24,000 nt of DNA from Peptostreptococcaceae bacterium (GCA_030532705.1 JAUNKR010000014.1:19681-43680); one strand, 5' to 3'; counted from the stretch's first letter, positions 1 to 21,514 are shown. Made by a program: numbers and translations. The notes: generated by a model from the letters alone, not told the origin.

Positions 1-1083
1 GACAAAAGTGATATCCATCTCTTTAATATTTTTTTCAAGCTCCCTAAAATCCTGTTTGCTGTAATCCAAATTGAGGATCATCGTAGCATAGATCTCAATA
101 TCATATTTCTTCAAAATAGAAACCGCTTGACGATTGGTCTCTACCGTTGTTTTTTTATTGAAATTCAAAAGGTCCTTTTTTCGAACCGATTCGATCCCGA
201 CGATCACTGCCCGAAGACCGTGGCGAGCAAGTCTTGAGATCAATTCTTCATGGTTGGCGATAAAATCAGCGCGCCCATAGACTAAAAAGCGTTTATCCAG
301 CTTTTCTTTTTCCAAAAGATCACAAAAAAGGTTCAAACGATTGGGATCGAACAAAAAATCATCATCCACGATATAGATCTCTTTTTCAGGGATCGTTTTA
401 AGCTCTTCGATGACCGACTCGATCTCACGAGCAAAATATTTTCCATCCGTCACTTCTTTACAGAAACAAAAGCTACAATCAAATGGGCATCCGAAAGATG
501 TCTTGATCAATGCACAGGGGTTATGGAACATATAATAATATCTGTCTCGGTATCGTGATACCTTCTCTCTCTTCGGCGGGTCATAAGGAAATTCCGCTTT
601 TTTCGTCCATCGAATAGTTTTGTGATAAGTTCCTTCGATGTGTTCTTCGTTATTCACTCCTAAAGAAAGTTTTGATCTATTTTCTCGCAAATGATCGACG
701 ATCCGTTTGAATGTCCCGATCGGATCCGAACAAATGATAAAGTCGATCGCATCATCTACAAAATCCTCCGGCACGACCTCTGCATGAACTCCTCCAACAA
801 CAATGACCGCATTAGGCAGTATCTTCTTGATGATCCTTGAATACTCCTTAATAACACCTACATGCGTGATATAGCCCGTTATCCCCACCACATCCGGTCG
901 ATATTTTTCAATATATACGGAAAGAGGTTTTTTTTCCAAGATCATATCCAAGATCGTGACTTCCGCCTTCTCCTCAGAAATATTGCCGGTCAAATATTCC
1001 AACTCCAGCGGTTCACATATCATTACATGCTGTAGACCGATCGTTTCTTTAGGCGGTCTCGGTCTGATCAAAAGAACCTGCAT
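1..1083 (-). CDS. Cobalamin (B12)-binding radical SAM enzyme, paralog 1; C-terminus lies beyond the left window edge
   Basis: Absent from the ORF track because it runs off the edge. My reverse-strand translation from the ATG at 1083-1081 reads MQVLLIRPRPPKETIGLQHVMICEPLELEYLTG...RPDVVGITGY...VVGGVHAEV...KTSFGCPFDCSFCFC (CX3CX2C)...IYIVDDDF and stays open to position 1 (361 codons). It is colinear with the 457-aa and 476-aa paralogs downstream in the window. An AAAGGAGAG SD-like sequence lies upstream. Confidence 0.85.
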   Translation of the reverse strand, partial: MQVLLIRPRPPKETIGLQHVMICEPLELEYLTGNISEEKAEVTILDMILEKKPLSVYIEKYRPDVVGITGYITHVGVIKEYSRIIKKILPNAVIVVGGVHAEVVPEDFVDDAIDFIICSDPIGTFKRIVDHLRENRSKLSLGVNNEEHIEGTYHKTIRWTKKAEFPYDPPKREKVSRYRDRYYYMFHNPCALIKTSFGCPFDCSFCFCKEVTDGKYFAREIESVIEELKTIPEKEIYIVDDDFLFDPNRLNLFCDLLEKEKLDKRFLVYGRADFIANHEELISRLARHGLRAVIVGIESVRKKDLLNFNKKTTVETNRQAVSILKKYDIEIYATMILNLDYSKQDFRELEKNIKEMDITFV

Positions 1084-1181
1084 CCTACTCTATTCTCTCC
1101 TTTTTAACGATCGTTGAGCACTTATGCAAAGCATTCTGTGACCGTATTCCACTTCCAAATTTTCGATTCAAAATTTTACAG

Positions 1182-1829
1182 CTATTTTCTTTCTTTTTTA
1201 CGAAATACCGTCACCAAAAGCGTCGGCATCCAAAAGCACTCCTTGAGCACATCCATTGCCAAAATCACCAGGTCCGGATCACAAAATCTGATCACCTCTC
1301 TTTTGGAAAGATATTTTGCAGATCCTGTAGTCATCTTAGTCAACGTAAATGCGATCTTATCGTAGATGCTATTTGATGAACCATGTGCCAAGATGAGCAA
1401 GCCACCCTCCCGAAGAAGACTCGTCATATCTTTGAACGCTTTTTTCTGATCTTTGTAATACGGAAGAGAGTGTGTGCACACTATGATATCGAATGCTCGA
1501 TCGATCGTAGCCAACTCGGAGACATCCTTGACGCAAAAATCCGCTTTGATCCCTTTTTTTCGTGCCACATCGATCATTCCCGGTGAATAGTCTATCCCAA
1601 GCATATGGAAATTTTTATCCTTTTTTCCATCTTGCTCAAAATATCTCTCCAGATCCTCTAACAGCTGCCCTGTCCCACAGCCGATATCCAATATATTTTT
1701 TACCTTTAGCCTGTTGTATTTTCGGATCATTTCGATCACTTTATCTCTTGTTACGCTCAGCGAATACTTTTGCATGAGCAATCGGTCATATCGGCTTGAC
1801 CAATAGTTCCAAATCTTTTTGCTTGACAT
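1182..1829 (-). CDS. Class I SAM-dependent methyltransferase
   Basis: 215 aa. It carries the methyltransferase motif I ILDIGCGTGQLLEDL, followed by an acidic loop (GIDYSPGMI) and a post-I/II pattern (FDIIVCTHSLPY). It starts 4 nt after the stop of the upstream rSAM gene. Confidence 0.85.
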   Translation of the reverse strand: MSSKKIWNYWSSRYDRLLMQKYSLSVTRDKVIEMIRKYNRLKVKNILDIGCGTGQLLEDLERYFEQDGKKDKNFHMLGIDYSPGMIDVARKKGIKADFCVKDVSELATIDRAFDIIVCTHSLPYYKDQKKAFKDMTSLLREGGLLILAHGSSNSIYDKIAFTLTKMTTGSAKYLSKREVIRFCDPDLVILAMDVLKECFWMPTLLVTVFRKKERK

Positions 1830-1833
1830 ATAC

Positions 1834-3207
1834 CTACCGATCCAAATAAATTTTACGTAGCAAATATCTGGACAACATTCTCTTAAAATATTTCAGATCC
1901 AAAAAATCGTATAGACCCGCTTTGCGTGCGCGCTTATACAGCTTTATAAACAAATCATAATAGTAGCGATAAAACTGTCTTCTGGTCAGATTTTTCGGCT
2001 CCATGACCAGATGAAGAAAATCCCAGTCTTCGATATTATCTGATGTGATCTCATCTTTGTACTCTTCATATAAGGGAGTCCCGGGGATCGGAGTAAAAAT
2101 AGATATCGTCACATGTAGTACTTCGTTACGCACGACCCAATCATAGATCCGATCAAAATCTTCTTTTTTGGCATCGACTCCTACGATCATCAATGCGATA
2201 CATTCTCCACCCGCACCATTGATATTACGTACCGCCTCTTCGTTGTTCGTCACACTGGTCTTTTTATTGTAAGCAAGCAGCTCTTTGTCACTGGTCGCTT
2301 CCAATCCCACCAAAAAATATTTAAATCCGATATCCACGAGTTCTTCAACGATCTCTTTATTTTGAGAAACAAAATCCGCCCTCGCATAACAGGTATAAGT
2401 TTTTTTGATGTCATTTTCCTTCACCAAACGGATAAATTCCCGAACTCTCTTTTTATCGACCAAAAAGTCATCATCGACGATCTGAATATTATCGACATCG
2501 ATCCCTTTCAACTCTTCGATCACCAAGTCCAGATCTCGAACTTGATAGCTCCCCTGATTTAGCAAGGTACAATAACAAAATTTGCAATCAAAAGGACAAC
2601 TGAACGATGTCTTGAGCGTTGCCATCGGAGTCATGTCCAAATATCGAAATCGATGTTTATGTTCATAAAAGAAAGTACGATCCGGTATCGGCAAGGTATT
2701 GATGTCTACACGTTCGTATGGATTTACGATCCATTGTCTGTTCTGATCTTTATAACATAGCCCATTGATCTCTTCGAATCTTTTGGAAAGCGGTCTCTTC
2801 AATCGGACATCCTCGATCATTCGGATCAGATCTACAAATCCATCGACGGACTCACTTCTTGAAATGAAGTCGATATGCTCATCATAAAATCGCTCATAAT
2901 TGAGCTGCACATGCACTCCACCGACGATCGTAACAATATCTTTCCGGAATTTTTTTGCCGCTCTAAACATATTTTTCATGACATTTTCTTGTGTCAGGTA
3001 GCCGGTGATCGCCACCACATCCGGCTCAAATCGTTTCAAGACTTTATTAAATGGTTTATTTTCACATATATAATCAAAAATGTGATCTTCGTAACCTGCC
3101 TTCATCAACCCCGTATGCAGATATTCCAGCTCTAGAGGTTCATTATCAAGCATGCCGGTAAAGCTCAATCTATTCGGTGCCGGTGGTCGTACCAAAAGCA
3201 CTTTCAT
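1834..3207 (-). CDS. Cobalamin (B12)-binding radical SAM enzyme, paralog 2
   Basis: 457 aa. The N-terminal Rossmann-like B12-binding region reads MKVLLVRPP...EPLELEYL...PDVVAITGY...IVGGVHV. The radical SAM cluster motif is SFSCPFDCKFCYC (CX3CX2C). An AAGGAG SD sits 7 nt upstream of the ATG. Confidence 0.9.
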   Translation of the reverse strand: MKVLLVRPPAPNRLSFTGMLDNEPLELEYLHTGLMKAGYEDHIFDYICENKPFNKVLKRFEPDVVAITGYLTQENVMKNMFRAAKKFRKDIVTIVGGVHVQLNYERFYDEHIDFISRSESVDGFVDLIRMIEDVRLKRPLSKRFEEINGLCYKDQNRQWIVNPYERVDINTLPIPDRTFFYEHKHRFRYLDMTPMATLKTSFSCPFDCKFCYCTLLNQGSYQVRDLDLVIEELKGIDVDNIQIVDDDFLVDKKRVREFIRLVKENDIKKTYTCYARADFVSQNKEIVEELVDIGFKYFLVGLEATSDKELLAYNKKTSVTNNEEAVRNINGAGGECIALMIVGVDAKKEDFDRIYDWVVRNEVLHVTISIFTPIPGTPLYEEYKDEITSDNIEDWDFLHLVMEPKNLTRRQFYRYYYDLFIKLYKRARKAGLYDFLDLKYFKRMLSRYLLRKIYLDR

Positions 3208-3346
3208 AATCTTACTCCTTATTCCCTTCCAAGATGATCTTTTTTCCTGCCTTCTTTACAACAAAATATCCTTCATTATACTTGTATGGATCAGTCAGAC
3301 TCTGCAAATTCAAGGAAGGACGCTTTCGTTTCTCAACAAGCCTCTC

Positions 3347-4168
3347 TTATTCAACGGGCATCAGATCGATCACAACATACTCCGGACGATTGTAAAAACG
3401 CGGGATTCTCGTTGACTCTCTGGCAAGCCCTCGACTGACGATCATCTTGCTGTTTTCAAATTCATACAAGCCCCCTGCATACTTAGGGAAAAAACCCTGA
3501 TTGGGTGCCAATAGTCCATTCAATATCTTGGGAATTCTCCACTGCCCTCCATGAGCATGTCCTGCCATAGACAGATCAAAATCTTTATAGAGCTCATATC
3601 GTTCCGGACGATGCGTCAAAAGCAGCGAAAACACTTTATCATCTATGGATCCTTTCACTGCCTTTAGCTGTTGTTGCCATATCGATTCCCCAACTTCCGG
3701 ATCATCGATCCCAAAAAGATCGATCCGTTGACCACGGATCTCTATTTCATTTTTCGTTCCCTCCAATACAGTGATCCCATAGGAGCTTACCATTGATTTC
3801 AAACGATCGAGATCATTCGTCCAGCATTCATGATTTCCCGATACATAATAACTCGGGTAATTTTTCCCCGCCCATTCTAAAAACTCCCATGCTTTCTTCT
3901 CCGGCAGATCATCATCAATAATATCTCCGGCAAGAAGTATGATGTCCGGCTTACTTTCATCGATCATACGAGTCAATCCGCTTTGTCCTTCTCCGTAATT
4001 ACAACTATGAAGGTCAGCGACCAATGCGATCCGAACAGAGCTGTCGATCCGATCATCTTTCAATGTATAATATACGGTCTTTGCTCTTTGATCCAGCCCG
4101 ATCCCTGTGAATAACACCATCGCTCCTACGATCAAGAACCATTTTTTACTTTTTTTGATTTTCTTCAT
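3347..4168 (-). CDS. Membrane-anchored calcineurin-like metallophosphoesterase
   Basis: 273 aa. It has an N-terminal basic stretch plus a TM helix (KKSKKWFLIVGAMVLFTGIGL). The metallophosphoesterase motifs occur in canonical order: ALVADLHS (DxH), LAGDIIDD (GDxxD), SGNHE (GNHE), LLTHRP and AGHAHGG (GHxH). Confidence 0.85.
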   Translation of the reverse strand: MKKIKKSKKWFLIVGAMVLFTGIGLDQRAKTVYYTLKDDRIDSSVRIALVADLHSCNYGEGQSGLTRMIDESKPDIILLAGDIIDDDLPEKKAWEFLEWAGKNYPSYYVSGNHECWTNDLDRLKSMVSSYGITVLEGTKNEIEIRGQRIDLFGIDDPEVGESIWQQQLKAVKGSIDDKVFSLLLTHRPERYELYKDFDLSMAGHAHGGQWRIPKILNGLLAPNQGFFPKYAGGLYEFENSKMIVSRGLARESTRIPRFYNRPEYVVIDLMPVE

Positions 4169-4309
4169 CCTCTTTTCTTCTCAGCTTCTTCCTTGTAACG
4201 CCCCTGAACCGATCCGGCGGATCCTTATCGATCAGAGTGACTCTTTGCCCCGATCGTTCGTACAGTAGGCAGTATAACGATCTTGGGGATATCCTGATCA
4301 TCCTCCGAT

Positions 4310-5740
4310 CTATCCAAGCGTTCTTGCATTTTGCTGCAATCTTTGTTTTATCTCTTTTTCTCTCTTACCCGCGTTCCAGAAATTTTTTATATATACAGAG
4401 ATCAAAGTATTAAAACCGAACAGCATACGGATCGTATTCCCGATCGGAAAGGCTTTGACCGTGTATTTTACGGAATGCCAATTCAAATTGACGCCAAAAG
4501 TAAATTTCAGCACTTCCCAATAATAGCTTCTCAGGCTCATCTTGGAAGGCATGATCAACACATCCCCAAAATTCCATTTATCATAGTCCGTCTCATCATA
4601 AAGCAGACGGCCCTTGTATTGCTCAAAAAGCGGTGTCAGCGGATGCGGATTGAGCGGTGAAAAAGTAAGAAGCTCGGGCTTAAGCAATTTTTTGTAGGCA
4701 TTCAGTTTTCTAAAATCCGATCTATCCCAATCCGGATGCAAAATAAACGAACCCCAGCAAGCAATCTCATTTGCACGCAAGATCTCTGTCGCTTTTAGAT
4801 TTTCGTCCACCGTTGCCGCTTTGTTATATTTTTTCAGCTGTGCATCGTCAAAACTCTCATATCCCACGATAACTGCTGTCAGTCCGTTCTTTCTTAGTCT
4901 TCTGAACAGATCCGGTTTTTCCAAAATTGAATTCACGGAACCATAGCAAATATACTCTTTATAGATCCCTTTTTCTTCCAGCAGATCACAAAATCTTTCC
5001 AATCGTTTTCGATTGATCAAAAAATCATTGTCACAGATCATGATATAAGGTTCTTCCAACGCCTGTATCTGAAGAACGATCTCGTCGATATTGATCTCTC
5101 GAAGTGTCGGGCCCTCCAACTTCCATCTCACGCAGAATTCACAGCGATTTCTGCATCCAAAGGAGGTTTGGATCACCGCACAGGGCTGAAACCCTACATA
5201 GCGGTATTCTTTCCGATATCTCCTTGTGGATTCCGTATCGGGTACGATATATTCATTAAAACAAAACTCTTTATCATTCGAAAAATCGAGCATTCGACTG
5301 TAGATCCCCTCGATCGGCTCATCAAGTATTCTCCTCTGCTCGATGGACTCCATCAGCTCTTTATAGTTCGCTCTTGTAGTAGACTTAAAAACATGATCGA
5401 CGCTCTCATCAAAAAATGAATTTGGATACACCATAGCTTGTACTCCACCTACGACAACAGTGATCGAATCATTATATCCCTTGACCGCTTTTGCAATGCC
5501 AAGAACATTCTCTACATCAGTGCATTGCGAAGTGATGCCTACTACATTCGGACTAAAGCGCTCCAGATACTCTTCCAAACGAGCATTGGTCTCGACCATA
5601 AAATCTGCAAGCAACACTTCATGCCCTTGTTCCTTCAAGATAGTAGCTACACATTCGATCCCCAAAGGCTCTCCAAATAAAAAATTTTTTACCGTTGTGA
5701 TATTTTTATTGACCCAAGGTCTGATAAGCAAAACTTTCAT
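4310..5740 (-). CDS. Cobalamin (B12)-binding radical SAM enzyme, paralog 3
   Basis: 476 aa. The N-terminal region reads MKVLLIRPW...EPLGIECV...PNVVGITSQ...VVGGVQA. The radical SAM motif is SFGCRNRCEFCVRW (CX3CX2C). A GGGAAGGGA SD directly precedes the ATG. Confidence 0.9.
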   Translation of the reverse strand: MKVLLIRPWVNKNITTVKNFLFGEPLGIECVATILKEQGHEVLLADFMVETNARLEEYLERFSPNVVGITSQCTDVENVLGIAKAVKGYNDSITVVVGGVQAMVYPNSFFDESVDHVFKSTTRANYKELMESIEQRRILDEPIEGIYSRMLDFSNDKEFCFNEYIVPDTESTRRYRKEYRYVGFQPCAVIQTSFGCRNRCEFCVRWKLEGPTLREINIDEIVLQIQALEEPYIMICDNDFLINRKRLERFCDLLEEKGIYKEYICYGSVNSILEKPDLFRRLRKNGLTAVIVGYESFDDAQLKKYNKAATVDENLKATEILRANEIACWGSFILHPDWDRSDFRKLNAYKKLLKPELLTFSPLNPHPLTPLFEQYKGRLLYDETDYDKWNFGDVLIMPSKMSLRSYYWEVLKFTFGVNLNWHSVKYTVKAFPIGNTIRMLFGFNTLISVYIKNFWNAGKREKEIKQRLQQNARTLG

Positions 5741-5871
5741 ATTCCCTTCCCTTATCTCAGATCTGCTCCATTTATACCAAAATAGAAACTTTTAGAATCC
5801 TATTCTATCATAGGACCTTATGATTTTTGCGGTTTTTTTGTAGTATCATAATCGATCGCATTCGCTCTGTT

Positions 5872-6870
5872 TCAAAAATCAAATCCCTGCTCGAAGTCCA
5901 CTCCCTGATTTTTCATGCAATACATTTGTTTTTGAAGACCGCGATGCTCCACATAGCTCACGATCTTTCTCAGCAAAAGATCCGGAATATATCGACTGCC
6001 AATATGTAAATACAGTTCTTTCGGATTTGCTCCGACTCTACATTTTGAATATTCCGTCGTTTGTCCAAGCAAGATCTTTTTCTTTCCCTGTCCAAGCGAA
6101 AGGATCTTAAGAAGAATGTTGATATAGAGATCATAAAACTTATTTTGCGTATGATCAAAACCGCAAAACAAAAAAATCAATTCCTCTTCGATCTCTTTCG
6201 TTTGAAAAAATGCGAGTACCTTCCCACCCTTTGTCCTCACACGATATAGATCGGCATCACATTTTTGAAAAAAATCAATGTTCAGTTTTTCCAATTTGCC
6301 TTCCGACCTTTCATGAACTTCTTCATACAAACGATATAGCTCTTCATCAAAGCAACTTGGATCGATCTTCTCAAAAGAAAGTGTCTTCCCCTTTTGGATC
6401 GCCTTGTTGATACGATAGCGATAATGACTGCGCATTTGCAAGATATGCTTATCCAAAGACTCCACCACCACTTCAAAAGATGGCAAGGTCCTTCCTTTTG
6501 GCAGATCCAATTCTCCATCGCTATTGAGAACAAGAATGCCCCCGAATTTTTTCAAGTATCTCGACAGCTCCCCGACTCCCTCTTTGGACGAACAATAACC
6601 CGGACAGGCGATCGATAATGGGATCCCCGCGATCATGATCGGCATTTTAACGCAGAAGGCTTTAGTGAATGTAAAAACATCCAGCCACAAACGATAGGTC
6701 ACCAAAAGGATCCCTGCGCTTTCATTCAAATGGTAGCGCTGATCACAAGGATTTACCTTTTCCAAAAATGACAGAAAAGATCTTTTCTGAAATGGATGAT
6801 CTGCGATCTGGTCCCAAGCTAAAGGCAATTCCTCCGCCTTATCATAAATTCGAAATTTTTTTGCCATCAT
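5872..6870 (-). CDS. FemAB-like / BioF2-like GNAT-fold acyltransferase family protein (weak family call)
   Basis: 332 aa. The N-terminal WDQIADHPFQKRSFLSFLEK, the mid-protein MRSHYRYRINKAIQKG and the C-terminal LGQTTEYSKCRVGANP resemble the DUF482 / Acetyltransf_6 (FemAB-like) pattern. Its ATG overlaps the upstream gene stop (ATGA at 6867-6870). Confidence 0.5.
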   Translation of the reverse strand: MMAKKFRIYDKAEELPLAWDQIADHPFQKRSFLSFLEKVNPCDQRYHLNESAGILLVTYRLWLDVFTFTKAFCVKMPIMIAGIPLSIACPGYCSSKEGVGELSRYLKKFGGILVLNSDGELDLPKGRTLPSFEVVVESLDKHILQMRSHYRYRINKAIQKGKTLSFEKIDPSCFDEELYRLYEEVHERSEGKLEKLNIDFFQKCDADLYRVRTKGGKVLAFFQTKEIEEELIFLFCGFDHTQNKFYDLYINILLKILSLGQGKKKILLGQTTEYSKCRVGANPKELYLHIGSRYIPDLLLRKIVSYVEHRGLQKQMYCMKNQGVDFEQGFDF

Positions 6871-8012
6871 AGATCGATCTCAAACACTTTATAAAGTGTT
6901 TTCTTCTCTTCTAAAAATTTTGAAGTCAAATTTCTGGATCCTGCATTTCCTTCTAGGATCCACCCTGACTCGATATAACGATACCGTTCCTTATTCAATT
7001 CGTAACAATGCTTCAAAAGCGCATAGATCGCTCCTGTCCTCTGATACTCTGGGATGACTCCAAACTCGGTCAACTTGATCGTGTCTATGCTTCGAGGAAA
7101 CAGCCTGCTTTTGATAAAAGAACATGGTCCCAGCTCCTGTCCTCTTTTGATCAATTGGTTGAAATCCGGATACCACAAAATAAATGCGATCGGTTTTTGA
7201 TCTTTATACGCAAATAAAATATTTTCAGGTTTCAAAAATAATTTGTACTCATTAAAAAGTTCAATATCCTCGTCTTCTCTACTCTCATAATAGTATTCAT
7301 GGTCCGAAAAGGCTTGATTATTGATCTGTCCGTAAATCCGGGCAACCTTTTCGATATTCCTAAAATCTGCATATCGGATCTCAAATCGATTTAGTCGCTC
7401 CTGCATCCCTTCCGAAAGTTTCAGATCCAGATCTGCGACCCTCCCTTTATAGCTCATCAGTCGGTTTACCTTTGATGCCCAAGGTTCGATATGGTCGATA
7501 TAGTATTTTGGATTATAGGCACTTCCTATACTTTGCATCTCTTCAAAGCCGGAAGCCAACATCCCCAGCCCATAGTTCACATGAAAATTCATCCCTATCA
7601 GAAGCTTGGAGATCCCTTTCTTCTTTGCAACAACCTCTGAATAGTTTAGGATCGCTTCGATTATTCGAGGATCATCTTTCATCTCAAGAAATGATATCTG
7701 CAAAATGTTGCTCATTCGATCGATGATACCCAAAAAAGCGCTTCCGACCACCTCATTCTCCCGCTCTACGATAATAGGTATGATCTCTGAGCTTTTTTGG
7801 ATCTGCATTTTTCGTTGCAAAAGAGATTTGATCGTCCTCGTTTGATTATCTCTATAATAAGGGTTCCCTTGATAAATCTTTTTTCTAAAATGTATGATCG
7901 ATGAAACATCAGATTTGTCTGCAAGGCGGACTCGGATATTCCTTTCTTTTCGGATCATTGTTTGCCATCTCCCTAATGTTAGATTACTGTCACTGCGTTT
8001 TAGGATCTTCAT
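6867..8012 (-). CDS. GNAT-family N-acyltransferase, long two-lobed form (YghO-like)
   Basis: 381 aa. It has the GNAT-like acyl-CoA binding segment FGVIPEYQRTGAIYALL and the terminal ESGWILEGNAGSRNL motif. It is the first gene of the operon. The start is ambiguous: the ATG at 8012 has a weak SD, while the internal ATG at 7958 (MIRKERNIRVRLADKSD) is preceded by GGGAGA 9 nt upstream and may be the real start. Confidence 0.6.
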   Translation of the reverse strand: MKILKRSDSNLTLGRWQTMIRKERNIRVRLADKSDVSSIIHFRKKIYQGNPYYRDNQTRTIKSLLQRKMQIQKSSEIIPIIVERENEVVGSAFLGIIDRMSNILQISFLEMKDDPRIIEAILNYSEVVAKKKGISKLLIGMNFHVNYGLGMLASGFEEMQSIGSAYNPKYYIDHIEPWASKVNRLMSYKGRVADLDLKLSEGMQERLNRFEIRYADFRNIEKVARIYGQINNQAFSDHEYYYESREDEDIELFNEYKLFLKPENILFAYKDQKPIAFILWYPDFNQLIKRGQELGPCSFIKSRLFPRSIDTIKLTEFGVIPEYQRTGAIYALLKHCYELNKERYRYIESGWILEGNAGSRNLTSKFLEEKKTLYKVFEIDL

Positions 8013-8098
8013 GCACCCATTCGATCGAAGGAATTTTTCTTTCGCTTGACAAGCTCACAGAAGATCTCAAGACAGGAAGCCTAGTTTGATCTGTTTCT

Positions 8099-8127
8099 AT
8101 TATAAAGGAGAAAGCACTCTAAGTCTA
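8099..8127 (-). promoter_or_regulatory. Sigma-A-type promoter candidate for the rSAM/GNAT operon
   Basis: On the minus strand: -35 TAGACT (8127-8122), a 17-nt spacer, then a perfect -10 TATAAT (8104-8099). It lies about 85 nt upstream of the ATG at 8012 and downstream of the preceding operon terminator. Confidence 0.4.
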
Positions 8128-8256
8128 TAAATCCCCTCTATTTATTTCCGGAGAGTTAGGTATCATTCCTAGTGTTTTGAGTTTTCTTCCCCCGACAAAA
8201 TACTTCACGAGCTGCGAATACATTTTGTCATTTGCATTTATGAGGTCCGGATCTTA

Positions 8257-8291
8257 GCAAAAATAAAAGCGCCCCTTAATAAAAGAAGCGC
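8257..8291 (-). terminator. Rho-independent terminator of the 9156-10472 / 8447-9175 operon
   Basis: On the minus strand: GCGCTTCTT-TTATT-AAGGGGCGC (9-bp stem including two G-U pairs, 5-nt loop), followed by TTTTATTTTTG. Confidence 0.6.
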
Positions 8292-8446
8292 TACTGCCAT
8301 CAGATCCTATCCTGATGATCTTTCTATTCTTATCGATAGGCATCCATAACTATACTTGATCTCTGCCTAACAAACTCAATTTTGATCCCTCTTCGAATCC
8401 GATCGCATTTGATCTGTGAACAAAGCTTTGTCTTGAGTTTTCATGA

Positions 8447-9175
8447 TCACATTTCCTCTATGAGATGTTTCCAATAATACTTCGGCAGATTCCCTCTTTG
8501 AAGGATCTTATTCTCCCTTTCTTTGATCGAGATCGATCGGTGAAATAGCTTCCATAGCTCAGAAAAAACAAGTTCTTCATCGCTCCACTCCGCATTCACG
8601 CTTTCCGTTAAAAACAGCTCCGTCGATTCGGTATCATAATATGCCAACATCCCACGCTTTTTATCAAAGATCGCAAATCGTTCATTGCGCAAGCGATTCT
8701 TGAAATGAGCGATCAGTGTAGGTAAAATATTGTTTTTAGGCTCGATCACCGAAAATAAAGTTCCATCCTTCATTTCTCTGAAACGAACCAGCCCTAAATA
8801 CCGATGTCTCTCCCCAAGGACCTGCTTTACATACTGTCTCATCCGGATAACATCATCTTCCATGATATCCATGATTTTCGCACCGATCTTGACCGCTCTG
8901 TAGATCGTTCGTACAGCTACTGTATCTTTATCCTGTTGATAGGACAAAAAACATGCCCGCACATCATCCATGAACTGCAATGAGATCTCATTTCGAATAT
9001 ACTTCTCCACTCTCCTTGCCTTTGCGAAATCTGTAGGAACGAATATTTCAAGATCATCCCATCTCATCTGCTTTGTATTGCAACAGACACGACGGATCTT
9101 CTGCTGCTCTTTGTAGGCATCGAATACCACTGTCAAAAGACCGTCAAAAGTTCCATCATACCAATAATCGATCAT
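8447..9175 (-). CDS. DUF4130 / TIGR03915-like putative DNA metabolism protein (partner of the DNA modification/repair radical SAM protein)
   Basis: 242 aa. The N-terminus MIDYWYDGTFDGLLTVVFDAY is characteristic of this family as I recall it. A strong GGAGG SD sits 5 nt upstream. The gene overlaps the upstream radical SAM gene by 20 nt. Confidence 0.7.
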   Translation of the reverse strand: MIDYWYDGTFDGLLTVVFDAYKEQQKIRRVCCNTKQMRWDDLEIFVPTDFAKARRVEKYIRNEISLQFMDDVRACFLSYQQDKDTVAVRTIYRAVKIGAKIMDIMEDDVIRMRQYVKQVLGERHRYLGLVRFREMKDGTLFSVIEPKNNILPTLIAHFKNRLRNERFAIFDKKRGMLAYYDTESTELFLTESVNAEWSDEELVFSELWKLFHRSISIKERENKILQRGNLPKYYWKHLIEEM

Positions 9176-10472
9176 TGGATCCTCCTTGTAAAAGCTTCAT
9201 CGATAGACGATCGCTTTCCAAAATATTTCCTTCGTCAAAAAAACTCATTTGCTTTCCCTCTAAAAACGAATTATCTTGAAGCTGATCCCTGATATATCCC
9301 GCATCATCCTTTCGGTATCCGTAAAACTCCCCATCGACAGTAATAAAATACTTCGCTCTTTTTAAGACTACGCCGATCTTTTTCAAATGCTCATACTTTA
9401 GCTTCCCATGCTTTCTCGCTTTTATGATACGCAGTGCCGATGTCACCCCCAAGCCCGGGATACGCAAAAGCTCCTCATAGCTCGCTTTATTGATCTCCAT
9501 TGGAAAGAGATGCAGATTATTGACAGCCCAATTCGCTTTTGGATCCAATAAAACATCAAAAAATGGCTGTTTTTCACTCAAAAGCTCTTTTGCTTCAAAT
9601 TTATAAAAACGGAGCAACCAATCCGCCTGGTATAAGCGATGTTCTCGCAGAGGAGATCCCGCTTTATGTTGTGCAAGCAAACCTCTTTTATTTACGGGTA
9701 CGTACGCGGAATAATAGACCCTTTTTAAATCGAAGCTTTTATACAGATATTCACTCTTACTCAGTATCGTATAATCATTTTCTCCACCTGCTCCGACGAT
9801 CATCTGAGTGGTTTGCCCTGCCGGAACAAATGCAGGCGTACTTTTGATCAATTTTTGTTCATGTGCTCTTTGGATCTGACGCTCATGAACACAATTCATC
9901 GATCGCACGATATCGCTCACCTTTTTATCCGGTGCTAAAAGTTGCAGACTTTGATTATCCGCCATCTCGATATTCACAGAAACTCGGTCCACATACATCC
10001 CCAATGTATAGATCAATTCAGCACTCGCTCCCGGGATCACTTTCATATGGATATACCCGTTGAATTTTTCGACCATGCGAAGACGGCGAGCGATCTGGAT
10101 CAATCGCTCCATCGTGTGATCCGGATCCTTCAAAATGCCGGAACTCAAAAACAATCCCTCGATGTAATTGCGACGATAAAAATTTATCGTCAATCGGACG
10201 ATCTCATCCGGTGTTAAAGTCGCACGCTCAATATCATTGCTTCTTCGGTTGATGCAATACTCACAGTCATAGATACAGTGATTTGTCATCAGGATCTTCA
10301 GCAAAGAGATACATCTTCCATCAGATGACCATGAATGGCAAATACCGCTTTTATGTGCGTTTCCGATCCCATCTTTCGTATTCTTTCTCTGACTCCCGCT
10401 CGACGAACAGGATACATCATACTTTGCAGAATCACTTAATATCCTTAGCTTATCTTCCAGACTTTTGCTCAT
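9156..10472 (-). CDS. Putative DNA modification/repair radical SAM protein (TIGR03916-like)
   Basis: It has the radical SAM motif NHCIYDCEYCINR (CX3CX2C) and a C-terminal helix-hairpin-helix-like segment ELLRIPGLGVTSALRIIKARKHG. The ORF-track start at 10511 is a GTG without an SD. I place the start at the ATG at 10472-10470 (MSKSLEDKL), preceded by GGAGG (10482-10478). Confidence 0.85.
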   Translation of the reverse strand: MSKSLEDKLRILSDSAKYDVSCSSSGSQRKNTKDGIGNAHKSGICHSWSSDGRCISLLKILMTNHCIYDCEYCINRRSNDIERATLTPDEIVRLTINFYRRNYIEGLFLSSGILKDPDHTMERLIQIARRLRMVEKFNGYIHMKVIPGASAELIYTLGMYVDRVSVNIEMADNQSLQLLAPDKKVSDIVRSMNCVHERQIQRAHEQKLIKSTPAFVPAGQTTQMIVGAGGENDYTILSKSEYLYKSFDLKRVYYSAYVPVNKRGLLAQHKAGSPLREHRLYQADWLLRFYKFEAKELLSEKQPFFDVLLDPKANWAVNNLHLFPMEINKASYEELLRIPGLGVTSALRIIKARKHGKLKYEHLKKIGVVLKRAKYFITVDGEFYGYRKDDAGYIRDQLQDNSFLEGKQMSFFDEGNILESDRLSMKLLQGGSNDRLLV

Positions 10473-10726
10473 CTTTACCTCCGATCCACCAAAAAATTCT
10501 ATGTTCCACACTTTTTCCGGAATAAATTGTTTTTAGATCTGATCTTTTTCTACATTTTCTACTTTTAATCACACTATATCATAAACAAAACAAGAAAACC
10601 AGAAATTTTCTCATTTTATTCTTTATTTTTCTATTGAATTTTCTTCTTTTTTAGTATAAAGTATAGAAAAGTATTTCTTAGAAACCGAATAAGCGGTTTC
10701 TTCTAAAGACGGAGTATTTCTACTCA

Positions 10727-11260
10727 ATGAAAAGGATGGAAATTATGAAAACAGCTCTTTGTATTGAAAAAATGATCGAGTTTTATAATGGTGATCTACG
10801 CGAAATAAATCACTTCCTAAAAGTTTTTTCATTTGCTCAAACGATCGGAAAGCTGGAGGATCTGGACGAAAAAACACAGGAAATTTTGGAAGTGAGCGCT
10901 ATTGTACACGATATCGCTTGTCCCTTATGTCGTGAGAAATATGGCCATGCGGACGGAAAACTTCAAGAAAAAGAAGGAATGCCTCTAGCGATCTCTTTTC
11001 TCTCCTCACTGAATTACGAAAAGACCTTGATCGATCGTGTAAGTTATCTGGTAGGACATCACCACAGTTACGATAATGTCGACGGATCGGATCATCAGAT
11101 CCTTCTGGAAGCCGACTTCTTAGTGAATGCTTTTGAGAGCAACTATTCCGAGGAGCAACTCTATCATGGATTTAAAAAAATTTTCAAAACAAGATCCGGC
11201 AAACAACTTTTTCTGAAAATGTATCCCATACGATCTCTTTTAGATGTAGATATTGCTTGA
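10727..11260 (+). CDS. HD-domain metal-dependent phosphohydrolase
   Basis: 177 aa with an HD signature (AIVHDIACP) and a downstream VGHHHSY. The start is ambiguous: ATG codons occur at 10727, 10736 and 10745, and the AAAGGA SD-like sequence best fits 10745 (MKTALCIEK). Confidence 0.8.
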   Translation: MKRMEIMKTALCIEKMIEFYNGDLREINHFLKVFSFAQTIGKLEDLDEKTQEILEVSAIVHDIACPLCREKYGHADGKLQEKEGMPLAISFLSSLNYEKTLIDRVSYLVGHHHSYDNVDGSDHQILLEADFLVNAFESNYSEEQLYHGFKKIFKTRSGKQLFLKMYPIRSLLDVDIA

Positions 11261-11269
11261 TCTTATAAT

Positions 11270-11301
11270 AAAATGGGCTGAACGATCGTTCAGCCCATTT
11301 T
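11270..11301. terminator. Bidirectional rho-independent terminator between the convergent HD and flavodoxin-like genes
   Basis: Perfect palindrome AAAATGGGCTGAACGATCGTTCAGCCCATTTT. The GC-rich stem GGGCTGAAC/GTTCAGCCC is flanked by an A-run and a T-run, so it is U-tailed on either strand. Confidence 0.75.
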
Positions 11302-11302
11302 A

Positions 11303-11764
11303 TTATTCTATCTTCATTTTCTGGATCACTTCTTCAACAAATACGATCGCATTTTGAATATCATCTTCATTCGGATGATCCGGCCTTTGCTCATACATCG
11401 ATCGGAATGGTCCGAAAGTATCGTAACCCCTGCACTCAAACTCACCGAGAACATCAAAGCCTTTTTCGCTCAACTCTTCTGAAAATGCATTTGCAAACTC
11501 GCCTTTACCGATACCGCTCGTGAGGATCACAAAAGTCTGATCAGGCAATCCTTCCTGTTCATTCAAAAACTTTCGGATCAATTTATGCGGTCTTGCCATA
11601 TAGATCCCGGATGCGAACCCTATCATTTCATAAGGAGACAGATCTACAGATTTTATTTGTGTAATATCATATAGATCTACCGGGCATTTTTGAGCAATCC
11701 TCTTTACCAACTTTTCTGTATTTTTATGATGCACGGATGCATAAATGATCGCAACTTTCGGCAT
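11303..11764 (-). CDS. Flavodoxin-like fold protein
   Basis: 153 aa. The N-terminus MPKVAIIYASVHHKNTEKLV is typical of short flavodoxin-family proteins, and GFASGIY / ILTSG are glycine-rich FMN-loop-like segments. An AAGGGGGA SD sits 4 nt upstream. Confidence 0.7.
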   Translation of the reverse strand: MPKVAIIYASVHHKNTEKLVKRIAQKCPVDLYDITQIKSVDLSPYEMIGFASGIYMARPHKLIRKFLNEQEGLPDQTFVILTSGIGKGEFANAFSEELSEKGFDVLGEFECRGYDTFGPFRSMYEQRPDHPNEDDIQNAIVFVEEVIQKMKIE

Positions 11765-12794: not shown

Positions 12795-15380
12795 ATGAAC
12801 ACACAAAAATTTACTCAAAAAACTATTGCTGCTTTGACTGATGCTCGAAGCAATGCAATTTCAAGAAACAACACTCAAGTTGAACCGGAGCATCTGATGT
12901 TTGCGCTACTGGATCAAGAGGACGGCCTGATCCCCCGACTGCTTCAAAAGATGGGGATCGATCTGCACTTTGCCCTAAGCATCGTCCTCGAGCATCTAAA
13001 CAAGCTTCCTTCCGTGACCGGCGGAGAACAAACGGTTTACTACTCTCCTGCGATCGAAAGGATCTTGATCGAATCCGAAAAAAGCGCTAAAGAGTTCAAA
13101 GATGAATATGTTTCTGTCGAACATCTGGTACTGGGCTTTCTCGCCGACAAAAACGATAAAGTTCGTTCAATGATGCGATCCATCGGAATTGAAAAACAAA
13201 ATTTCCTAGAGGCTCTACAGAGTGTTCGAAGCAATCGACGGATCGATAATGATAATCCTGAAGAAAATTACGAGGCACTGACCAAGTATGGTTATGATCT
13301 TGTAGAGCGTGCACGAAGTCAGAAATTAGATCCTGTGATCGGACGTGATAATGAGATCCGAAACCTTATTCGTATCCTTTCCAGAAAAACCAAGAACAAT
13401 CCGGTTTTGATCGGGGAACCCGGCGTTGGAAAAACAGCTATCGTTGAAGGTCTTGCGATCCGAATATTGAAAGGGGATGTTCCGGAAGGCTTAAAAAACA
13501 AAACCATTTTTTCACTCGATATGGGTTCATTGATCGCCGGAGCAAAATTTCGGGGCGAGTTTGAAGAACGTCTCAAGGCCGTCCTAAATGAAGTCAAAGA
13601 ATCTGACGGAAGGATCATTCTTTTCATCGACGAGCTTCATAATATTGTCGGCGCCGGAAAAACGGATGGTGCTATGGATGCCGGAAACCTTCTAAAACCG
13701 ATGCTCGCTCGTGGCGAATTGCATTGTATCGGTGCCACCACATTGGATGAGTATCGAAAATATATCGAAAAAGACGCCGCTTTAGAAAGACGTTTCCAAC
13801 CCGTACTTGCAGACGAGCCGACGGTCGAAGATACGATCACTATCTTACGCGGCCTTAAAGAACGTTATGAGTTATTCCACGGTGTATCTATCGCAGACTC
13901 CGCACTTATCAGTGCAGCGACTCTTTCCCATCGATATATCAGCGATCGATTTTTACCGGATAAAGCGATCGATCTTGTGGACGAAGCCTGCGCAATGATC
14001 CGAACAGAGATCGATTCTCTCCCGACTGAACTGGATGAGATCTCCCGAAAGATCATGCAGCTTGAAATCGAAGAAGAGGCACTCAAAAAAGAGACCGATA
14101 AGCTTAGTTTAGAAAGACTTGAAAACACTCAGCGGGAGCTGGCTGATTTTCGGGACGAATTTGCTGTCATGAAAGCAAAGTGGGAAAGCGAAAAAGAAGG
14201 TATCGTTGCGATACAAAAATTAAAAGAAGAATTGGGCAATGTCAATTCAGAAATCGAGCGTGCTGAAAGAGAATATAATCTGGAGCGCCTTGCTGAATTA
14301 AAATATGGCATCCTCCCAAAATTACAGGCTGATTTGGAAAAAGCCGAAAACGAAAATCAAAATTCGAATCAGCATACTCTCCTTCGAGATCGTGTGACTG
14401 ATGAAGAAATTGCAAAGATCATCGCAAGATGGACAGGTATCCCGGTTACAAAATTGCTGGAAGGAGAAAAAGAAAAGATCCTGAATCTGGAGAATATCCT
14501 ACACCAAAGAGTGATCGGACAAGATCAGGCTGTGGCAAAGGTATCTGAAGCGATCCTTCGATCTCGCGCAGGAATTTCCGACCCGAATCGTCCGATCGGA
14601 TCCTTTATGTTCCTTGGGCCTACCGGTGTCGGTAAGACCGAATTGGCGAAGGCCCTTGCAGAAAGCTTGTTTGATGATGAACAAAATATCATCCGGATCG
14701 ATATGTCCGAGTATATGGAAAAACATTCCGTCTCTCGTTTGGTAGGAGCTCCTCCGGGATATATCGGCTATGATGAAGGCGGTCAGCTGACAGAGGCTGT
14801 CCGAAGAAAACCTTACTCGGTCATTCTGTTTGACGAAGTGGAAAAAGCACACCATGACGTATTTAATATTCTTCTTCAGGTGCTTGACGATGGACGGATC
14901 ACCGACTCGCAAGGAAGAACAGTCGATTTCAAAAACACGATCATCATCATGACCTCCAACCTCGGCTCAGAATACCTTCTCTCCGGGATCGATCCGGATG
15001 GGAACTTAACTCAAGAAGCTATCGATCAAGTAAATAGTCTTCTTAAAATGTCTTTCCGACCGGAATTTTTGAATCGATTGGATGAGATCGTATTCTACAA
15101 ACCACTGAACAAAAACGAAGTTCTTTCGATCATTGATCTGATCATCAAAAAACTTGGCGACCGACTTGAACAGCAGCAGCTGAAATTAGAAGTGACGCCA
15201 GAAGCGAGAAACTTCATTGCGGATGCCGCTTATGATCCGCTTTATGGGGCACGTCCACTGAAGCGATATATCCAAAGTAAACTGGAGACCTTGATCGCAC
15301 GAAAGATCATCATCGGAGATCTTGATCTCGATTCAAAGATCATCGTTGATCTGGAAGAAGAAAAGCTGATCATTCGATAA
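12795..15380 (+). CDS. clpB: ATP-dependent chaperone / disaggregase ClpB
   Basis: 861 aa. It has a Clp N-domain, two AAA+ modules with Walker A motifs [15 protein letters not shown] and [15 protein letters not shown], a long coiled-coil middle domain (EIDSLP...[10 protein letters not shown]) between them, and no ClpP-docking loop. Confidence 0.97.
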
Positions 15381-15393
15381 AAATATAAACAGC

Positions 15394-15421
15394 AAAAAAC
15401 GCTTGAATTCAAGCGTTTTTT
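15394..15421. terminator. Bidirectional rho-independent terminator between convergent clpB and the LCP gene
   Basis: AAAAAACGCTTG-AATT-CAAGCGTTTTTT: a 6-bp GC-containing stem extended by A/T runs on both sides. Confidence 0.8.
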
Positions 15422-15440
15422 GTTATGATAAGAAATCCTT

Positions 15441-16430
15441 CTATTCTTTTTTATCATTTTCCGTTACGACATTATCTCCCGTCGTGGTCGCACTTGGCGG
15501 AGGGTCCACCGCATCCGAAAGCAGTTCGATCAATAGATCATTTTTCCCTGTTTCATCAACGATCCAATAGTCTACTCCACCGATCCGCTGACCTCCTCCC
15601 GGAATATGCGCCTTCTCGATCGTGGATGGATCAAATTTGAGCAATAGCGACTTGGATAGGTCCAGCATCTGCTTTTTACTCATATCCGTCTCAACATTTC
15701 GAGAAAGGATATCAATATATGTCGGCACGTTGACTACTAAGGATGGCGATACGATCTTTTCCATCATAAGTTTTACAAATTCCTGCTGAGCTCCGATCCG
15801 ACCAATATCCGGAATAACATAACCGCTCCTAAAACGAAGATACTTCACCGCTTCTTCTCCGCTGAGCGTCTGTAATCCTTTTGTGAAATGGATCTTGAGT
15901 GCTGCATAATGCATATCCTGAGGAATATCGATCTCCAGACCTCCAACGGCATCTACCAATTCCGTTACCGCATTATAATCCACCTTCACATAATGATGGA
16001 TCGGTATTTCCAAAAAGTTTGAAATGGTCCTGATCGCCAGATCCGTTCCTCCATAAGAGTGGGCATGATTGATCTTGTCCATTCCGTAACCTTCAATAGG
16101 TACTCTGGAATCCCTCGGTATCGAAAGCAAAAACGATTTATTGTTTTTAGGATTATAGCTAAAGAGCATGATGGTATCCGTTCTGGTGCCTCGCTGACCT
16201 TCATCACTTCCAAGCTTGAGATAATCTACTCCCATCACAAGAATGTTGATACGTTCGGTCAATTCCGGAACGACCTCTTCCAAACTCTCGATATTCTTTT
16301 CCTCGTTTTCCTTCATCTTCGCCTGATGATCCCGCTCTAAATAATAGCTGATCCCTGCACCGATCGCTACGGAAAACACAAAAAATAATGTAAAAAATAA
16401 TAAAACTCCGGTTCTTAGTTTTCTTCTCAT
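15441..16430 (-). CDS. LCP family (LytR-CpsA-Psr) cell-envelope glycopolymer transferase
   Basis: It has an N-terminal TM helix (GVLLFFTLFFVFSVAIGAGISYYL) and the LCP core NILVMGVD...TRTDTIMLFSYNP...LLSIPRDS...KINHAHSYGG. The ORF-track ATG at 16463 lacks an SD. The ATG at 16430 (MRRKLRT) is preceded by GGAGTGAGG, so I start there. Confidence 0.88.
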   Translation of the reverse strand: MRRKLRTGVLLFFTLFFVFSVAIGAGISYYLERDHQAKMKENEEKNIESLEEVVPELTERINILVMGVDYLKLGSDEGQRGTRTDTIMLFSYNPKNNKSFLLSIPRDSRVPIEGYGMDKINHAHSYGGTDLAIRTISNFLEIPIHHYVKVDYNAVTELVDAVGGLEIDIPQDMHYAALKIHFTKGLQTLSGEEAVKYLRFRSGYVIPDIGRIGAQQEFVKLMMEKIVSPSLVVNVPTYIDILSRNVETDMSKKQMLDLSKSLLLKFDPSTIEKAHIPGGGQRIGGVDYWIVDETGKNDLLIELLSDAVDPPPSATTTGDNVVTENDKKE

Positions 16431-16489
16431 ATGCCTCACTCCATTTTGGTTTTGCTCGATCATTCTAACATATTTTCGGCAGATTGTAA

Positions 16490-16518
16490 ATAATCCTAAG
16501 AGCTAGAGGTCGTGTCAA
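16490..16518 (-). promoter_or_regulatory. Promoter candidate for the LCP gene
   Basis: On the minus strand: perfect -35 TTGACA (16518-16513), a 17-nt spacer, then -10 GATTAT (16495-16490). Confidence 0.35.
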
Positions 16519-16611
16519 GCGATGCTTTCCATATCGACCAAAGTCACAGTACAGACTAGGTATCTTATATCCCTTATCCGTGCACTTCTATGTTCAATCC
16601 CCTGTTCCTTC

Positions 16612-17493: not shown

Positions 17494-17540
17494 CACAGCC
17501 TCCTTCTGCTCACAAAGTAAAATGATAACCATTTTCTGCT

Positions 17541-17630: not shown

Positions 17631-18236
17631 CTATTTCCCATGTTCATCGATGCGCGTATTTGCATCATTTTGAATAAATGGGTTCGGATAATTGATAACG
17701 AGTATTCGTACCTTCTTATTGGTGTTATTTTCCCAATTATGCGGTGTCTTCGAATCTAAATAGGCGGTATCTTCCGGATACATCTCATAAACTTTGTTTT
17801 TATAGTTCAATGTCAAAACACCTTCCAGGACATAGATGAATTCTACTCCTTCATGAACATAGGTTTTGACATGGTCATTATCTGATGATGGCCACAATTC
17901 GTAGATTCGAGGCAAAAACTTTGCATCTTCAAGATCTTTTGCTAAATAAAATTGGACATACTTCGTATTGACAGACCCAACCTGCCGATCATAGCTGCGA
18001 ATGACCGGCTCTTCATCATAAACTGATTTTTTGGGCATATTAAAAAAACTGTCCATATCCATGTCTAAGATTTTTGCAATGTTTTGAAGTGAATCGATCG
18101 CGATCGATGTCATTCCACGCTCAAATTGTGATAAAAAACCTGTCGAAAGACCGGTGCGCTCACTCAGCTCTTTGAGTGTGATCTTTTGTTCCTTCCGTCT
18201 ATTTTGTACCCTGCTACCAATATCCAAATTGTTCAT
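17631..18236 (-). CDS. XRE-family HTH transcriptional regulator with a C-terminal cupin domain
   Basis: 201 aa. The N-terminal HTH_3 pattern is IGSRVQNRRKEQKITLKELSERTGLSTGFLSQFERG. The C-terminal cupin-like strands read HEGVEFIYVLEGVLTL...PHNWEN. Only 37 nt separate it from proC, with no terminator in between. Confidence 0.85.
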   Translation of the reverse strand: MNNLDIGSRVQNRRKEQKITLKELSERTGLSTGFLSQFERGMTSIAIDSLQNIAKILDMDMDSFFNMPKKSVYDEEPVIRSYDRQVGSVNTKYVQFYLAKDLEDAKFLPRIYELWPSSDNDHVKTYVHEGVEFIYVLEGVLTLNYKNKVYEMYPEDTAYLDSKTPHNWENNTNKKVRILVINYPNPFIQNDANTRIDEHGK

Positions 18237-19071: not shown

Positions 19072-19099
19072 TTTTTTCACCTCATCATTATATTTTATC

Positions 19100-21513: not shown

Positions 21514-21514
21514 T

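Follow-up and report, generated by a model that had tools for sequence, protein, structure and literature searches.

A conserved gene module of B12-type radical SAM enzymes, a methyltransferase and two GNAT-fold transferases as a putative biosynthetic pathway of strict anaerobes

A 24,000-nt stretch of DNA from a Peptostreptococcaceae bacterium (GCA_030532705.1, JAUNKR010000014.1:19681-43680), referred to below as the window, carries at its left end a compact cluster of genes for radical S-adenosylmethionine (SAM) enzymes with a B12-binding domain (rSAM), a SAM-dependent methyltransferase, a tandem-GNAT acyltransferase (GNAT) and a transferase resembling Fem and MprF proteins (Fem-like). With a fourth rSAM gene located just past the window's edge, these represent seven gene families, which are predicted to constitute a self-contained, tightly spaced module conserved in strict anaerobes. 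The enzymes belong to known superfamilies, and the widely conserved tailoring module itself is, as judged from the comparisons below, an undescribed one. With a probability of about 0.5, the module is regarded as a biosynthetic pathway in which an amide-linked acyl or aminoacyl conjugate would be made from ordinary metabolites and subsequently C-methylated several times, all of its steps being putative. An acylated or aminoacylated, multiply methylated product had been suggested in a preliminary description of this DNA, and it is retained as the best reading of the gene content. The same description called the cluster an orphan operon, a label that had to be abandoned, as at least 14 GTDB species were found to carry the module, together with 294 metagenomic stretches.

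The distribution of the module was determined by two scans, one of GTDB with a single genome per species and the other of metagenomes with a GNAT alignment, and about 105 loci were compared in all. The GTDB scan gave 14 loci, 13 of them in Bacillota, with the weakest, partial match in a metagenome-assembled genome (MAG) of Gemmatimonadota; the metagenome scan revealed 294 relatives, from which 80 loci were retrieved. The GNAT, Fem-like and methyltransferase families and four rSAM orthogroups recurred in more than 100 loci, which answered positively the proposed check for conservation of the gene neighbourhood. All seven families were present in 24 of the 41 untruncated loci and only rSAM3 was missing in another five. 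The gaps between core genes had a median of -1 nt and did not exceed 30 nt in 80% of cases. The canonical order, established with synteny scripts, was GNAT, Fem-like, rSAM2, methyltransferase, rSAM1, rSAM4 and rSAM3, and an alternative order (methyltransferase, rSAM1, rSAM4, GNAT, Fem-like, rSAM3, rSAM2) was also observed. The GNAT and Fem-like genes were adjacent in 87 loci, the methyltransferase gene was followed by rSAM1 in 63 and rSAM1 neighboured rSAM4 in 58, with the number of rSAM genes per genome varying from one to four.

Among cultured hosts were Alkaliphilus metalliredigens QYMF with a 6-gene cluster, Acetoanaerobium noterae DSL2 with the canonical 7-gene cluster (locus L108, NZ_CP154629.1, 3648-11676), Desulfuribacillus alkaliarsenatis and a strain with a complete genome labelled Alloiococcus sp. 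CFN-8. The module was also identified in oral or saliva-type Peptostreptococcaceae/Filifactoraceae MAGs, and a minimal 4-gene set (GNAT, Fem-like, rSAM2 and methyltransferase) was present in the cable bacterium Candidatus Electrothrix laxa. The occurrence in oral or saliva-type MAGs and cable bacteria suggests a physiological role, such as an envelope or cofactor-like compound, over that of a niche antibiotic. The L108 replicon, 2.63 Mb in length, was deposited as 'plasmid pTPELB2' and has four annotated features in the collection. A plasmid location was considered and rejected, since this sole close match in the plasmid collection looks, in our own reading, like a chromosome under a plasmid label.

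In the window, seven co-directional genes occupy the minus strand from position 8012 to the left edge, in the order GNAT, Fem-like, rSAM3, metallophosphoesterase, rSAM2, methyltransferase and rSAM1. The open reading frame (ORF) listing and the translations agreed with the gene order given previously. The GNAT gene (6867-8012), assigned to tandem-GNAT acyl-CoA N-acyltransferases by Pfam and by Foldseek comparison of its AlphaFold2 (AF2) model, codes for 381 aa as the longest ORF. Its start is more probably M19 at position 7958, giving a protein of 363 aa, because it is preceded, at a distance of 10 nt, by an AGGGAG ribosome-binding site and the homologs are 356-364 aa long. The gene of the Fem/MprF-like tandem-GNAT transferase (5872-6870, 332 aa), named after the Pfam matches of its homologs and the predicted fold, shares with it an ATGA stop/start overlap at 6867-6870. 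Further along the strand are rSAM3 (4310-5740, 476 aa), of HpnR/BchE-like type, the gene of a membrane-anchored, calcineurin-like (YaeI-like) metallophosphoesterase (3347-4168, 273 aa, PF00149) and rSAM2 (1834-3207, 457 aa). The gene of the class I SAM-dependent methyltransferase (1182-1829, 215 aa), a Methyltransf_11/25 type according to Pfam, follows rSAM2 after a gap of 4 nt (1830-1833) and is separated by 98 nt from rSAM1 (1-1083), of which the N-terminal 361 of 461 aa are visible before the gene runs off the edge. Both the overlap and the 4-nt gap, reported before, are real; the remaining intergenic gaps of the operon are 98-141 nt long.

The extension to the left, recommended in the preliminary description, was read from a 12,954-bp Logan contig (L001) found by exact-protein look-up, the encoded proteins being 100% identical to those of the window across the overlap. 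The contig contained the full-length rSAM1 gene (7870-9255, 461 aa) and, 15 nt past it, a fourth B12-type rSAM gene (rSAM4, 9271-10593, 440 aa), so that the three rSAM enzymes counted previously are actually four. A protein 100% identical to rSAM4 is labelled 'MAG: Peptostreptococcaceae bacterium' in NCBI. A 270-nt gap with merely a weak 5-bp hairpin separates the operon from an AlaX-like tRNA-editing gene, which is followed by a lipoprotein-like gene. The window is thus predicted to hold seven of the eight genes of one operon-like unit, with rSAM4 as the eighth just beyond its left edge.

The rSAM1-3 proteins are mutually 28-34% identical (E values from 1e-53 to 1e-88) and share a set of aligned motifs, including GGVH (GGVQ in rSAM3) and an intact CxxxCxxC, in agreement with their previous recognition as true paralogs. 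The forms of the latter motif aligned across the rSAM enzymes were CPFDCSFC, CPFDCKFC, CRNRCEFC and CPKSCSFC. PF04055 (Radical_SAM) matched rSAM1-3 with 57-63 bits (cut-off 29.5) and PF02310 (B12-binding) with 54-61 bits (cut-off 32.1). By domain content, these three proteins are assigned to class B-type (cobalamin-dependent) radical SAM enzymes and are predicted to bind cobalamin and transfer methyl groups. No rSAM, GNAT or Fem-like protein was at or above any curated NCBIfam cut-off. The best NCBIfam matches of rSAM1-3 were HpnR (TIGR04367; 142-180 bits vs. a cut-off of 650) and then BchE; rSAM3 gave the 180 bits for HpnR, whereas rSAM2 reached 146 bits for HpnR and 137 bits for BchE, both far under the cut-offs. 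In a direct sequence search of PDB, rSAM3 matched OxsB only (E 0.004).

The rSAM4 protein, in which PF02310 was also recorded (some orthologs gave no match to this model), is about 24% identical to rSAM1-3 and forms a separate branch. It is unusually conserved, with 59-90% identity across orders. Its closest solved relatives by sequence are QCMT, a protein glutamine C-methyltransferase (PDB 9CCB; the best match), and AprD4. The nearest families include HpnJ and AprD4, and the PhpK, ladderane and BchE models score equally. In one metagenomic lineage (L034, 8318-8551, and the related L035-L058), the rSAM1-rSAM4 gap is filled by a tandem repeat of 113 nt (2.1 copies, 84% matches).

Bit-score clustering divided the rSAM proteins into four clean orthogroups across genomes, and the paralogs are therefore considered ancient and functionally distinct. 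This argues that they serve separate chemical steps, as had been proposed in place of recent redundancy. The rSAM3 orthogroup, with 20 members, is an accessory one, missing from the 6-gene clusters, and rSAM2 orthologs are the sole rSAM enzymes kept in the minimal cluster of Ca. Electrothrix laxa. The D. alkaliarsenatis ortholog of rSAM3 (L021, 16880-18841) carries a fused guanylate kinase domain in which every GMP-binding residue is retained (SVTTRAIRPEE, GNYYGT, DID), a hint that rSAM3 may act on a nucleotide or a phosphorylated compound.

The two transferases were analyzed at the level of both sequence and predicted structure. Residues 239-363 of GNAT matched Acetyltransf_1 (PF00583) with 31.5 bits (cut-off 20.7). 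Its AF2 model, with a mean predicted local distance difference test (pLDDT) score of 93.6, was most similar in Foldseek to glucosamine (GlcN) N-acetyltransferase of C. acetobutylicum (5kf1, E 1e-14, template modelling (TM) score 0.6-0.7), followed by MAB_4324, the clavulanate tandem GNAT and MshD (structural E values from 1e-14 to 1e-11). The modelled fold of GNAT is nearest to acetyl-CoA tandem GNATs acylating amines. A distant GNAT relative, P0169, stands alone and was set aside as uninformative.

The Fem-like protein of the window matched no Pfam or NCBIfam model (PF02388, PF13480 and PF04339 gave nothing at E<=0.1), and PDB sequence searches gave no match either. Of the earlier family assignments, which were to be checked with hidden Markov models, those of the rSAM enzymes, the methyltransferase, the metallophosphoesterase and GNAT pass Pfam cut-offs, and that of the Fem-like protein is based on its homologs and the predicted fold. 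Its family members matched PF13480 in 14, PF04339 in nine and PF02388 in one (E 0.04) of 21 cases, and the only NCBIfam model touched was TIGR03019, the PEP-CTERM-associated FemAB (3/21 members, best E 8e-4). The AF2 model (pLDDT 90) had as its best 23 Foldseek matches in PDB aminoacyl-tRNA-dependent enzymes, i.e. Sbb17/Sba18, the MprF synthase domain and FemX (E from about 1e-8 to 1e-6, TM about 0.5), with N-myristoyltransferases as the next structural neighbours. From the modelled fold, the Fem-like protein is a probable aminoacyl-tRNA-dependent aminoacyl transferase. Its 332 aa lie wholly within two GNAT lobes, and a basic RSHYRYR motif is conserved in the family. No evident transmembrane helix was found in it; just two 19-residue windows exceeded the hydropathy threshold and both fall in a modelled beta-strand. 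The family is rare: it comprises 49 clusters when grouped at 90% identity, and at 50% identity 284 clusters reached E<=1e-30 in a set of 1.84 billion proteins that holds one representative of each 50%-identity cluster. Fusion proteins join it to GNAT (P0412, 718 aa), to a class III aminotransferase plus a dehydrogenase-like domain (P0391, 1282 aa) and to a B12-binding domain (P0374, 454 aa).

The best NCBIfam matches of the methyltransferase were BioC and CpaM, far under cut-off, and its PDB neighbours were generic only. The phosphoesterase exceeded the PF00149 cut-off and gave 80.6 bits with the YaeI model NF008460 (cut-off 188), so it can be placed in the general Metallophos family only; no match was obtained for it in PDB sequence searches. 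Its lysine-rich N-terminus is followed by one hydrophobic segment, which, by the positive-inside rule, suggests that the catalytic domain faces outward. The gene was restricted to L003-L006 and the window, i.e. to one Peptostreptococcaceae/Filifactoraceae lineage, which ruled it out as a step of the core pathway. As an insertion specific to this lineage and with a catalytic domain that probably faces outward, it is weak evidence for pathway chemistry, and the argument for a phosphorylated or lipid-linked product, drawn from it previously, is not supported. The palindrome GATCCGTGGTCAACGGATC at 3722-3740 inside this gene, with a terminator-like score on both strands, is probably a coincidence.

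The flanks of the module consist of unrelated housekeeping genes, different in each lineage. All-against-all clustering of neighbours in the about 105 loci revealed no accessory family conserved beyond near-identical loci, and the same was true of small ORFs or precursor peptides in, before or after the cluster. No transporter, exporter or regulator was conserved with the module in these loci, and no RRE, SPASM, protease or YcaO was found at the cluster. The absence of consistent companion genes implies that the module is self-contained and draws on common metabolites, without a dedicated exporter. The previously noted lack of hallmark partners of known pathways (pepM, squalene-hopene cyclase, RRE/SPASM and a precursor peptide) was also confirmed, none of them being found.

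Some individual loci had neighbours of possible chemical relevance. The L018 cluster itself includes genes for a FeeM-like N-acyl amino acid synthase and for a homolog of phosphatidylserine decarboxylase. A FeeM/exosortase-type acyltransferase and a pyridoxal phosphate (PLP) decarboxylase adjoin it in L105, and an adenylating enzyme similar to fatty-acid-CoA ligases (NCBIfam matches all under cut-off) is encoded with an acyl carrier protein (ACP) directly upstream of it in L104. In L022, GNAT and rSAM genes, without a Fem-like gene, are joined to a DltB-like MBOAT operon. Together with the guanylate kinase fusion of rSAM3 and the aminotransferase fusion P0391, these hints lean towards N-acyl amino acid or aminolipid chemistry and a phosphorylated or nucleotide-linked intermediate, and do not settle the product. 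A glycine-betaine-type binding protein is encoded 3' of the cluster in three related loci. The AlaX-like alanyl-tRNA editing gene follows rSAM4 in the window's lineage only (L001, 10868-12040; L003, 18663-19880, 10 nt after rSAM4), and its place next to genes of a pathway that putatively uses aminoacyl-tRNA could be fortuitous or not.

In the proposed pathway, the Fem-like protein would first move an aminoacyl group, most likely from aminoacyl-tRNA, onto a common acceptor at one of its amine or hydroxyl groups. The MshD/GlcN-acetyltransferase-like tandem GNAT would then cap an amine from acyl-CoA and the class I methyltransferase would methylate an O or N atom. Subsequently, rSAM2, retained even by the 4-gene clusters, followed by rSAM1 and rSAM3, could methylate different unactivated carbons or extend one methyl group stepwise, and the highly conserved rSAM4 might perform a further radical step. 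The phosphoesterase is a lineage-specific add-on outside these core steps. Because no exporter is conserved, the cell probably retains the product, either inside or on its surface. An amino-acid-bearing lipid or a lipoamino acid is the preferred, if tentative, candidate for the product class. In its boldest and equally tentative form, the proposal is that of a new class of cell-retained metabolites in strict anaerobes including cable bacteria, in which an aminoacyl-tRNA-derived amide introduced by a new Fem-like family would be combined with a heavily branched alkyl group built by up to three paralogous rSAM enzymes plus the distinct fourth one (e.g. from methyl through ethyl and isopropyl to tert-butyl) on an aminolipid- or mycothiol-like scaffold. 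If true, class B rSAM enzymes would gain four new functional groups, and a further tRNA-dependent pathway, itself new, would be defined.

Several observations weigh against this proposal. All core proteins are predicted to be soluble, and each of the lipid hints described above is a singleton limited to one lineage among the loci compared. No sequence model recognizes the Fem-like protein of the window, and its N-myristoyltransferase neighbours imply that the donor could be acyl-CoA or acyl-ACP instead of aminoacyl-tRNA. B12-type rSAM enzymes also carry out chemistry other than methylation, as in the case of BchE, HpnJ, OxsB and ThnL. Moreover, AprD4-like relatives carry a B12-binding domain yet bind no cobalamin (PMC12931638). 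With such non-methylation chemistry and cobalamin-free relatives on record, the C-methylation assigned to the module is a prior, not a result.

Alternatively, an amino sugar or sugar phosphate could be the acceptor, giving a soluble mycothiol/bacillithiol-like N-acetyl-aminoacyl-hexosamine conjugate that would be ring-modified and C-methylated and might serve anaerobes as a low-molecular-weight cofactor or osmolyte. Both transferases have as their closest structural neighbours enzymes that acylate the amine of a hexosamine or a residue attached to it (GlcN N-acetyltransferase and MshD; Sbb17/Sba18 bound to streptothrisamine), but these matches are at the fold level only (TM 0.5-0.7, 9-14% identity), and the module is not accompanied by a conserved gene for a glycosyltransferase, a deacetylase or sugar activation. 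Similarly, HpnJ and AprD4 near rSAM4 act on amino-sugar rings, in accordance with their NCBIfam and PDB names, whereas rSAM4 is scored equally by models of PhpK, ladderane and BchE. The predicted solubility of all core proteins and the glycine-betaine-type binding protein after the cluster in three related loci favour this possibility, as do the fusion of rSAM3 to an intact GMP kinase, seen in one genome, and its position beside the phosphoesterase here, both in line with phosphorylated or nucleotide-linked substrates. Taken together, an amino-sugar conjugate is considered unlikely.

A still less likely possibility is that the module modifies a macromolecule encoded elsewhere, either a tRNA/RNA nucleotide or a housekeeping protein, and not a free metabolite. 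This would be consistent with the lack of an accompanying substrate gene, transporter or regulator, with the 59-90% identity of rSAM4 across orders and with the nucleotide-kinase fusion of rSAM3; Fem-fold proteins bind tRNA acceptor ends, as established for FemX, and the best solved relative of rSAM4 is the protein-modifying QCMT (PDB 9CCB). Five of the seven core families (GNAT, Fem-like, methyltransferase, rSAM1 and rSAM4) also have a basic isoelectric point, but this is common in AT-rich genomes. Seven enzymes acting on a single modification site would be unprecedented, and the variation from one to four rSAM enzymes between genomes fits metabolite tailoring better than a fixed site. Least probable is a cluster for a ribosomally made and post-translationally modified peptide (RiPP) or another secreted natural product, with the precursor or scaffold genes elsewhere. 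A resemblance to the bottromycin, polytheonamide and clavusporin clusters lies in the combination of an O-methyltransferase with several B12-rSAM C-methyltransferases, but no conserved small ORF was present in, before or after the cluster, RRE, protease, YcaO and exporter genes were missing and the flanking housekeeping genes differed per lineage. A RiPP assignment was rejected on these grounds.

The rSAM1-3 proteins resemble the class B rSAM enzymes HpnR and BchE in domain order, with the N-terminal B12-binding domain followed by the radical SAM core with CxxxCxxC. Unlike them, they reach scores of only 142-180 bits, where the cut-offs are 650 and 481, and the rSAM enzymes of the module form their own four orthogroups. 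No squalene-hopene cyclase, hpn or (bacterio)chlorophyll genes accompany the module, and no hopanoid context was found in the window or the about 105 related loci. Assignments to hopanoid, bacteriochlorophyll, phosphonate, arsinothricin, ladderane, benzimidazole and MCR-methylase systems were all rejected, as the NCBIfam matches of the rSAM enzymes were far under cut-off and the partner genes were absent. An anti-phage defence system was likewise dismissed, with PADLOC giving weak superfamily-level matches only.

The logic of the module is shared with multi-methylase sets in which one conventional methyltransferase and one to four B12-rSAM paralogs act on one scaffold, namely bzaC/bzaD/bzaE, BotRMT1-3 with an O-methyltransferase and the methoxy extension by CysS. 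The bza, bottromycin and CysS examples draw in part on the list in PMC12931638. In contrast to the bza set, no cobamide genes are present here and BzaD scores only 25-37 bits (cut-off 450), and CysS matches rSAM4 at E 0.0015 only. No precursor peptide or nonribosomal peptide synthetase is encoded, and the partnership of a tandem GNAT with a Fem-like protein is foreign to all three systems.

The Fem-like protein has the same predicted tandem-GNAT fold as FemX/FemABX, the MprF synthase domain and Sbb17/Sba18, but differs from FemX, MprF and Sbb17 in its low identity (11-15%, TM about 0.5), in the lack of the MprF membrane domain and in the absence of a peptidoglycan gene context. GNAT shares the two-GNAT architecture of MshD and glucosamine N-acetyltransferase, with the acetyl-CoA-type Pfam match in the C-terminal half, whereas its identity is 11-14% and no mycothiol/bacillithiol glycosyltransferase, deacetylase or ligase accompanies it. 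The XrtA/PEP-CTERM FemAB set (TIGR03019, the TIGR03694 acyltransferase and the TIGR03099 decarboxylase), itself uncharacterised, is approached in L105, where relatives of its partner acyltransferase and decarboxylase are present; the matches are far under cut-off, no exosortase/PEP-CTERM genes were found here and that set is without B12-rSAM enzymes. No such cluster is described in the literature surveyed, including the 2026 reviews of characterised lipid-modifying and B12-dependent rSAM enzymes (PMC13459092, PMC12931638). The statement that the combination matches no described system thus holds for both the curated families and the literature.

The module brings together four uncharacterised rSAM groups in one compact operon and offers two handles on the scaffold chemistry, the tandem GNAT and the Fem-like protein. 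The natural 4-, 6- and 7-gene versions could help to order the steps, and hosts with complete or draft genomes are in culture. If the Fem-like protein uses aminoacyl-tRNA, it would be a new case of tRNA use outside translation. The module is a good testable lead for enzyme discovery and not yet a surprise in kind.

Upstream of the operon, a sigma-70-like promoter candidate (TAGACT-17-TATAAT, 10 of 12 consensus matches) is located at 8099-8127 on the minus strand. It lies behind a terminator-like hairpin (8268-8292, minus strand; 10-bp stem with five G-C pairs, then a T-run), which is situated between this site and the DUF4130 stop (8447) and would end the upstream DUF4130/rSAM gene pair. The single good promoter candidate reported before is present as a site, but such sites are no commoner in this AT-rich DNA than in shuffled sequence (33 vs. 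29.5), and 8099-8127 is only a promoter candidate for the operon, not statistically separable from chance. No leader RNA or riboswitch was matched by Rfam within the window.

The pair immediately upstream of the operon (8447-10511, minus strand) consists of a TIGR03916 'DNA modification/repair radical SAM' gene overlapping its TIGR03915 (DUF4130) partner, and it was also found beside the cluster in the related Peptostreptococcaceae/Filifactoraceae loci L003-L005. A hairpin with a perfect 19-bp stem (11265-11306) lies between the convergent genes of an HD-domain (10727-11260) and a flavodoxin-like protein (11764-11303) and has the look of a bidirectional terminator. The region 12795-17532 contains ordinary neighbours, namely ClpB on the plus strand (over the equivalog cut-off) and LytR-CpsA-Psr and DUF4846 genes on the minus strand. 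The minus strand of 18274-22417 encodes HypD, the glycyl-radical trans-4-hydroxy-L-proline dehydratase (1513 bits vs. a cut-off of 1100), with its activase and pyrroline-5-carboxylate reductase. This group represents a known hydroxyproline-reduction set, with a helix-turn-helix (HTH)-cupin regulator encoded just downstream (17631-18236).

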